Virus record (IMG/VR): IMGVR_UViG_2690316086_000006
Direction: 5' to 3' (one strand)
Length of the DNA stretch: 17,334 nt
Origin: a virus
Lineage: Duplodnaviria > Heunggongvirae > Uroviricota > Caudoviricetes
Part shown: positions 16,161-16,312 of the stretch, piece after piece
Numbering within the stretch: the first letter of the stretch is position 1
Layout: each line of letters begins with the position of its first letter
The notes under the pieces: model-generated
What the model was told of the DNA's origin: nothing
The model's input: only the letters and a program-made list of their open reading frames with translations
Databases searched by the model: none
Position numbers and translations under genes: made by a program

Positions 16161-16312
16161 AGTGAATTTTGTGATGCGGTGAATGCGGCTCAGCGCACGC
16201 GGAACAGTTAAAACCAAAAACAGTGTTATGGGTGGATTCTCTGTATCCGGCGTTAATTGTTAACTGGTTAACGTCACCTGGAGGCACCAGGCACCGCATC
16301 ACAAAATTCATT
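16161..16312 (+). repeat. Long-range 21-bp inverted repeat enclosing about 110 nt of leader
   Basis: 16161-16181 is the reverse complement of 16292-16312 (18 perfect bp plus 3 with one G-U); right arm ends 4 nt before the GAGGA Shine-Dalgarno of the 16328 gene. Confidence 0.6.

Follow-up and report, generated by a model that had tools for sequence, protein, structure and literature searches.

We analysed a 17,334-nt stretch of viral DNA (hereafter the window), which is a Qin/PPompW-like lambdoid prophage. On its plus strand, the sRNA gene dicF and the cell-division inhibitor gene dicB flank a long hairpin stem that closes a structured core (Table 1). The Rfam DicF model matched 16102-16153 with 75 bits, above its gathering score of 48, and the stem begins 8 nt after the DicF end. 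From dicF to the start of dicB, the window differs from the E. coli K-12 prophage Qin at 5 of 243 nt (98% identity), and a 241-nt query was 100% identical to bovine STEC chromosomes that carry a dicB annotation. The phage matches were PPompW-type, Stx2a-converting and mEp460-like lambdoid phages, which carry the annotation "cell division inhibition protein". In the curated K-12 record, dicF spans 1649382-1649434 and the dicF-dicB interval carries no annotation. We found the dicF-dicB element in 4642 of 5426 complete E. coli genomes (~85%). Cell division, sugar uptake and EHEC virulence are processes in which DicF and DicB have been studied as regulators, and the partitioning of the transcript they share sets the amount of each toxic product per cell.

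Table 1. Coordinates of the dicF-dicB element, its neighbours and a related RNA elsewhere in the window.
Feature	Position	Strand	Basis or remark
DicF sRNA, 53 nt	16101-16153	+	Rfam RF00039; 5' end 16101 corresponds to K-12 1649382
DicF Rho-independent terminator U-tract	16154-16158	+	part of the DicF unit 16101-16158
Stem 5' arm	16161-16181	+	repeat search, fold; inferred RNase III cut after ~16172
STnc100/PasD-like core	16182-16291	+	Rfam RF02076 alignment, MFE fold, family alignment
Core junction AAU	16182-16184	+	
Core hairpin P2	16185-16200	+	
Core variable hairpin region	16201-16248	+	
Core hairpin P4	16249-16275	+	
Core invariant hairpin P5, CCUGG-AGGCA-CCAGG	16277-16291	+	
Stem 3' arm	16292-16312	+	repeat search, fold, homologues; inferred partner cut between 16302 and 16303
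dicB Shine-Dalgarno GAGGA	16316-16320	+	sequence
dicB, 62 aa, cell-division inhibitor	16328-16516	+	Pfam PF05358 DicB, 125.5 bits
Second, canonical STnc100 copy	1320-1492	-	Rfam RF02076, 104.7 bits; late region, just downstream of three tRNAs
Three tRNA genes	2115-2188, 2205-2278, 2291-2363	-	

Several features of the surrounding genes are worth recording. The DicB encoded here differs from K-12 Qin DicB in its C-terminal half, and codons 2-10 of dicB hold a near-perfect 12-nt direct repeat (16332-16343, AAACGTTATTAC; 16345-16356, AAACGTTAATAC). A HigB-toxin (113 bits) and HTH-antitoxin pair, at 14170-14529 and 14532-14879 on the minus strand, sits between a dicA-like repressor gene (13725-14123, plus strand) and a promoter-like site at 14903-14931 that precedes the dicB operon; at the position of this pair, K-12 Qin is devoid of genes. 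Copies of the segment are also present in the records MT713136.1 (Aeromonas phage AP1, 98% identical) and PP818812.1 (Actinobacillus phage vB_Apl-pPE4, 88% identical). These look like contamination or mis-assembly rather than true host range.

The stem consists of a perfect 19-nt inverted repeat (16163-16181, TGAATTTTGTGATGCGGTG; 16292-16310, CACCGCATCACAAAATTCA) with 110 nt between its arms, and the pairs G16162·U16311 and A16161-U16312 lengthen it to 21 bp. An earlier reading of the letters alone (hereafter the sequence-only reading) had described an 18-bp perfect repeat, extendable to 21 bp with one G·U pair, around about 110 nt. This description holds, with the perfect part being 19 bp. 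It overlooked, however, both DicF, directly upstream, and the conserved structure of the enclosed RNA itself. The same reading had placed the end of the stem 4 nt before the Shine-Dalgarno sequence (SD) of dicB; the two are indeed close, but the gap is 3 nt (GUU) from the 21-bp stem and 5 nt from the perfect 19 bp. By chance, a perfect inverted repeat of this length (19-mer, within 200 nt) should arise only about 1e-5 times per 17 kb (17334 x 200 x 4^-19), so the repeat is not a chance occurrence. When 16150-16335 (186 nt) was folded with RNAfold, as the sequence-only reading had proposed, the stem was recovered at -70.7 kcal/mol, the mean of the shuffles being -47.7 (z = -6.3), and none of 200 dinucleotide shuffles was as stable. 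Across 18 distinct homologues, the 21 stem pairs are 98.7% paired. Substitutions in the stem among these homologues are double compensatory at 2 positions (U-A to C-G and A-U to G-C) and lead to wobble pairs at 4, which is a small number of independent changes (2 double, 4 single) in closely related sequences. The K-12 Qin stem has G·U pairs at two positions where this allele has G-C.

The sequence-only reading had called a duplex of this length a classic RNase III substrate. This interpretation of the stem is correct, and it is already known, having been published for the K-12 orthologue. In K-12, Rho-independent termination produces a 53-nt DicF, while dicBF mRNA that reads through is cut by RNase III to give a 72-nt DicF (Faubladier, Cam & Bouche 1990, as related by Balasubramanian et al. 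2016 and a 2022 review). According to these secondary accounts, both the RNase III dependence and the 72-nt product were demonstrated experimentally in K-12. A cut by RNase III on the 3' side of DicF has been known since 1990, and so our core finding adds nothing new. The K-12 Qin site (Faubladier 1990; Balasubramanian 2016; Ragunathan 2023) is orthologous to the one described here, with the same DicF, stem and dicB start. As far as the available text of the K-12 Qin literature searched extends, it describes the RNA end, but not the hairpin, the enclosed structure or an effect on dicB.

The length of the published product can be set against the geometry of the stem. Counting 72 nt from the DicF 5' end leads to 16172, which is nucleotide 12 of the 21-nt 5' arm and lies at the centre of the helix. 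From this length and geometry, the published 72-nt DicF end, as given in secondary accounts, would fall within the stem. By the rule that RNase III leaves 2-nt 3' overhangs, the partner cut would lie between 16302 and 16303 and would leave dicB with a 25-nt leader. If the cuts are so placed, the pairs between them are G16171-C16302 and U16172-A16301, both paired and with a G-C included. At RNase III sites mapped in vivo, the positions between the staggered cuts are paired and typically include a G-C (Altuvia et al. 2018). With 21 bp (19 perfect, the G·U and the A-U), the stem also has the approximately two helical turns (~20-22 bp) that go with double cleavage by RNase III, and its geometry as a whole agrees with a ~22-bp footprint, a 2-nt overhang and a G-C between the cuts. 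Gordon et al. (2017) flagged position 1649470, "dicF-dicB", as a known RNase III site ("Known? Yes"). Reads at this position numbered 0 in both wild-type replicates and 26 in Δrnc (Gordon et al. 2017), a low-count signal with a resolution of hundreds of bases and many similar weak entries around it. Ragunathan et al. (2023) describe a 190-nt DicF species whose 5' end comes from another RNase III cut, located upstream. In the window, a perfect 10-bp inverted repeat (15901-15910, AAGCGCACGG; 15956-15965, CCGTGCGCTT) ends ~190 nt before the DicF 3' end, which is where the RNase III-dependent 5' end of the published 190-nt precursor is expected.

The 110 nt enclosed by the stem are a conserved structured RNA and appear to represent a divergent member of the STnc100/PasD prophage RNA family that is embedded in an operon. 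The Rfam STnc100 model (RF02076), run on 16090-16400 (311 nt), aligned over its full length with 37.7 bits (E = 6e-7), short of the gathering score (47). The alignment includes the closing helix and internal hairpins of the consensus structure, and the same helices are present in the MFE fold. Elsewhere, the model scored 34.4 bits on K-12 Qin, 28 on K-12 Rac, 43 on phage P7 and 35.6 on a Klebsiella phage. The likeness to RF02076 comprises a closing helix of the form ...GGUG/CACC..., the AAU junction, hairpin P2, a covarying P4 and an invariant CC(N)GG-AGGCA-CC(N)GG hairpin that directly adjoins the closing helix at its 3' strand. Both STnc100 and PasD are prophage sRNAs that are expressed and associate with Hfq; they were united in a preprint by Zhu, Shabalina & Storz (2026), in which there is no mention of dicB or DicF. 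We did not find the STnc100/PasD identity of the RNA enclosed by the dicF-dicB stem in the literature searched. The canonical STnc100 copy at 1320-1492 and the dicF-dicB element have GGUGAAU...CACC(N)GGAGGCACC(N)GGCACC in common. The same prophage therefore holds this RNA family twice, as diverged copies that belong to different operons. A scan of the region upstream of DicF that includes the 190-nt precursor (15780-16165) for another STnc100-like core gave no match at E<=10.

To place the element within the family, we scanned viral contigs for the P5 motif and obtained at least 120 stretches, representing at least 107 unique elements. RNAalifold, applied to 77 representatives among the matches listed (this element included), recovered the closing helix P1 as well as P2, P4 and P5, with double compensatory changes in 11 of the 21 consensus pairs. 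The two free positions of P5 always pair in these 77 sequences, as G-C in 69 and as U-A in 8. A multi-hairpin core with covariation support is common to ~100 prophage variants among the matches listed. Indels in the family are not multiples of three and substitutions follow base-pairing, which speaks against a coding role for a GTG-initiated ORF at 16223 that is in frame with dicB. The structure of the element, its conservation and its family relationship are direct results of the present analysis.

The dicF-dicB element also departs from STnc100 and PasD in several respects. Its P2 is GCGGCUCAGCGCACGC, whereas theirs is CCCCCUGUGCGGAGGGG. Its closing helix has 21 bp, compared with 8-10 perfect bp in STnc100/PasD, and it lies in the early-left operon between an sRNA terminator and a coding gene, while STnc100/PasD lie in the late region. 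Unlike them, it has no promoter, 3' linker or terminator of its own; in place of the 3' linker and Rho-independent terminator that characterise a standalone sRNA, the dicB SD follows directly.

These differences coincide with a division of the family into two groups. Among the matches listed, 74 unique members are of a classic type; a terminator is present in 49 of them, mostly 24-36 nt after P1, and 21 of the 74 have a sigma70-like promoter whose -10 element ends 8 nt before GGUGAAU. The classic members are standalone sRNA genes. None of the 17 unique members of the long-stem subtype, again among the matches listed, has an upstream promoter or a downstream terminator. The signature of this subtype is a P5 of CCUGG/CCAGG and a P2 of GCGGCU.AGCGCACGC, and every one of the 17 follows a DicF-like terminator, CCGCCCUUUUU. 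Among the same matches, an SD and AUG follow every long-stem member at a fixed 32-44 nt, the distance to the AUG being 32 nt for dicB, 37 nt for kilR, 44 nt for a 94-aa Cys-rich ORF and 41 nt for a "MLNVAIENQNGW" ORF found in Shigella and Citrobacter. Only in this subtype, upstream of dicB, kilR and the two other genes, is the closing helix lengthened to 21-23 bp (among the matches listed): the perfect helix has 19 bp in the dicB type and 10 bp, a bulged A and 13 bp in the kilR type, compared with 8-9 bp in classic members. The best explanation is that a short closing helix was extended and so became an RNase III substrate in the subtype located between a DicF/KilS-type terminator and the start of a gene. 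A scan of genome contigs for the long-stem P5 motif returned 16 stretches, 7 of which contained the core by the GGUGAAU check; these came from Shigella, Escherichia spp., Citrobacter, Pantoea, Erwinia and one soil proteobacterial MAG. The remaining stretches fail the check and are mostly chance matches in unrelated MAGs, and the cross-genus diversity of the long stem is therefore thin.

The Rac prophage of K-12 has the same order of modules, namely an Hfq-bound sRNA with a DicF-like terminator, a long stem with its core, and an FtsZ-inhibitor gene. The sRNA is KilS (Bar et al. 2021; NC_000913.3 1418405-1418502, minus strand), which ends at a U-tract directly before the long stem upstream of kilR. 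The 3' half of KilS scored 39.1 bits (E = 9e-6) with the Rfam DicF model, and KilS looks like a DicF paralogue with a different seed. Bar et al. (2021) describe no relationship to DicF and no downstream structure. The Rac stem has 23 bp with one bulged A, the AUG is 37 nt after P5 rather than the 32 nt seen here, and the Rac core carries a mutation in P5. The kilR-sieB entry of Gordon et al. (2017), at 1418510, was considered as support for the Rac stem and rejected; it lies 8 nt upstream of the KilS 5' end and, at ~115 nt from the long stem, is not evidence for it. Upstream of KilS (Rac ~1418560-1418600, minus strand), GGUGGUGAAAUAAAACCGGGCAC resembles a core collapsed by an internal deletion, with the P1 5' strand joined to the 3' end of P5.

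Related arrangements were found in other phages. In mEp460, SfII and Stx2a/2c-type phages, a KilS-like seed and terminator come after a related core. Right after the KilS-like U-tract in SfII, mEp460 and the phage loci L007 and L046, we found a 25-bp long-range helix, ACAAAACAGAGAAGAGCA.../...GUGUUCUUCUCUGUUUUGU (z = -8), which occurs in 62 phage records, Stx2a/2c phages included, and is unrelated in sequence to the dicF-dicB stem. An sRNA terminator followed immediately by a long duplex thus recurs at this position with a different sequence. The DicF model had no match at E<=0.01 in the intermediate loci L007, L046, L010, L019, L053 and L081. In pairwise alignments to Rac KilS, the terminator region after the core of L007 aligned, and L046 aligned only over 33 nt.

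Taken together, we consider it highly probable that the hairpin is the intercistronic RNase III processing site of the dicBF operon (ydfABC-dicF-dicB-ydfD) of a Qin-type lambdoid prophage. In the mechanism we propose, most transcripts from the DicA-repressed promoter would end at the DicF terminator. On transcripts that read through, the next 152 nt would fold as a 21-bp duplex closing a four-hairpin core, and RNase III would bind the duplex and cut both strands near its centre, after ~16172 and ~16302. The products would be (i) the 72-nt DicF, with 19 extra nucleotides at its 3' end, (ii) a structured core RNA of ~130 nt and (iii) a dicB-ydfD mRNA with a 25-nt single-stranded leader and a 5'-monophosphate. 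That read-through transcripts are cut in the helix into these three RNAs is, in our judgement, very likely; where exactly this allele is cut, and what follows from it for dicB, is what we infer. Our best guess is that cleavage would uncouple the fate of the toxic dicB message from the upstream RNA that bears DicF, and would open a ribosome standby region just 5' of the dicB SD without unmasking the SD itself.

The lambda N leader and the intercistronic sites of T7 are long intramolecular duplexes in early polycistronic phage mRNAs, located shortly before the start of a gene and cleaved by host RNase III, and the dicF-dicB element resembles them in having a long duplex, an RNase III site and a gene start just downstream. 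It differs from the T7 sites in enclosing, by its helix, a 110-nt multi-hairpin RNA that has relatives among standalone sRNAs. Structure and cleavage in the lambda N leader act directly on the N initiation region; here, the dicB SD lies outside the helix and is predicted to be unaffected by it. By partition-function folding, the SD has an unpaired probability of 0.16 in 16101-16390, 0.12 in 15960-16390 and 0.14 in the predicted cleaved RNA (16303-16390). The stem includes neither SD nor AUG, and in its absence both are predicted to be just as accessible. The sole region predicted to change is 16303-16315, the 13 nt on the 5' side of the SD, whose unpaired probability rises from 0.19 to 0.89 on cleavage. 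A CCUU-GAGG pairing that would sequester the SD in the stem/U-tract appeared in a truncated fold only; it vanished once the DicF terminator was included, so we rejected it as a truncation artefact. The folds therefore argue only weakly for the lambda-N-like control of dicB translation that the sequence-only reading had suggested, and since SD accessibility is unchanged, such control could act via the standby region or mRNA stability rather than via SD sequestration. We found no report of an effect of the stem on DicB synthesis or dicB translation in the literature searched. The dicB SD (GAGGACG, 16316-16323) is also predicted to pair with ~16376-16383 (dicB codons ~16-18) in uncleaved and cleaved RNA alike; this pairing may possibly constitute a separate translational brake.

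An alternative is that the stem acts mainly in cis as a cleavage-independent brake on translation of a toxic gene, hindering 30S docking and keeping DicB or KilR low on read-through transcripts. A very stable helix ends 3 nt from the SD, its 3' arm reaches into the -20 edge of the ribosome footprint, uncut RNA is predicted to be 81% paired over the 13 nt upstream of the SD, and the same arrangement stands at a fixed spacing ahead of two independent FtsZ inhibitors. However, the SD and AUG are not in the stem and are predicted to be as accessible once it is removed, the SD is predicted to pair with dicB codons ~16-18 instead, and, of the four gene types found downstream, two are not known to be toxins. 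We think this brake unlikely, if still worth entertaining.

On a par with it, and likewise doubtful, is a reading in which the ~130-nt core released by RNase III (16173-16302) would be a third functional RNA of the operon, acting in trans or titrating a protein as STnc100/PasD might, for example by binding CsrA or Hfq. The core is homologous to expressed, Hfq-associated sRNAs, and in EPEC no sRNA is more abundant in CsrA ternary complexes than PasD2. The invariant P5 and five GGA motifs (16201, 16234, 16280, 16318 and 16330) would fit a protein-binding RNA, and with the cuts placed as above, a 9-bp helix with a 2-nt overhang would protect the released core at both ends. The long-stem subtype, however, has neither the 3' linker ("seed") nor the terminator of classic members. 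The read counts inside the core at 1649470 (none in wild-type K-12, 26 in Δrnc) argue for decay over accumulation, albeit in an operon that is repressed and in libraries from which small RNAs may be lost.

The inverted repeat could instead be mainly a junction between mosaic modules, a linker for the exchange of cargo genes by homologous recombination in lambdoid phages, with RNA processing incidental. dicB-type and kilR-type phages become similar within the DicF terminator and cease to be so exactly where the 3' arm ends (query 20/54-218; window 16312), which makes the element also a mosaic boundary. Four different genes follow the element, and copies are also found in P1-like phages next to terB. 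Yet the helix stays paired through compensatory and wobble-only substitutions, covariation of the internal hairpins extends over the family, and RNase III cleavage is documented. A DNA-level role would leave the strand-specific RNA structure unexplained, although both roles can coexist. As the main function of the repeat we find this improbable. Very improbable indeed is that the core is a put-type RNA antiterminator like that of HK022, allowing read-through of downstream terminators: in SfII/mEp460-type phages a related core does lie early in the leftward transcript, ahead of a terminator and with no N-like gene between, but the core here lies after the DicF terminator rather than before it, and in most classic members (49 of 74, among the matches listed) a downstream terminator evidently sets the 3' end of an sRNA. 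We rejected a link to HK022 put, as HK022 had no Rfam STnc100-like match (E<=1) and no motif within 3 mismatches.

With RNase III processing of read-through transcripts as the preferred reading, the family relationship and the cassette of sRNA, stem and toxin gene are modest additions that we did not find in the literature searched. What goes beyond that literature is that the RNA closed by the cut helix is conserved, covaries and is related to STnc100/PasD, a family to which the top CsrA-bound sRNA of EPEC belongs; that the same cassette precedes kilR in Rac, after KilS, a DicF relative; and that the element is present in so large a share of complete E. coli genomes. More tentatively, and as a possibility we would not yet bet on, dicF-dicB and kilS-kilR may both be operon-embedded STnc100/PasD members that became RNase III cassettes by helix lengthening, each releasing a third RNA of ~130 nt with its own (possibly CsrA- or Hfq-linked) function, and the DicF/KilS sRNAs and STnc100 cores may form one recombining modular system in lambdoid early-left operons.

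STnc100-like cores were also seen in two other settings. Phage P7 (72453-72568, 43 bits) and phage D6 carry one in the ban operon of P1-like phages, where it lies between upstream tRNA-Asn/Thr genes and terB just downstream. Diverged cores of the family also occur in tandem on some viral contigs, with three copies within ~1 kb in locus L017 and two copies ~490 nt apart in loci L012, L028, L051 and L078.
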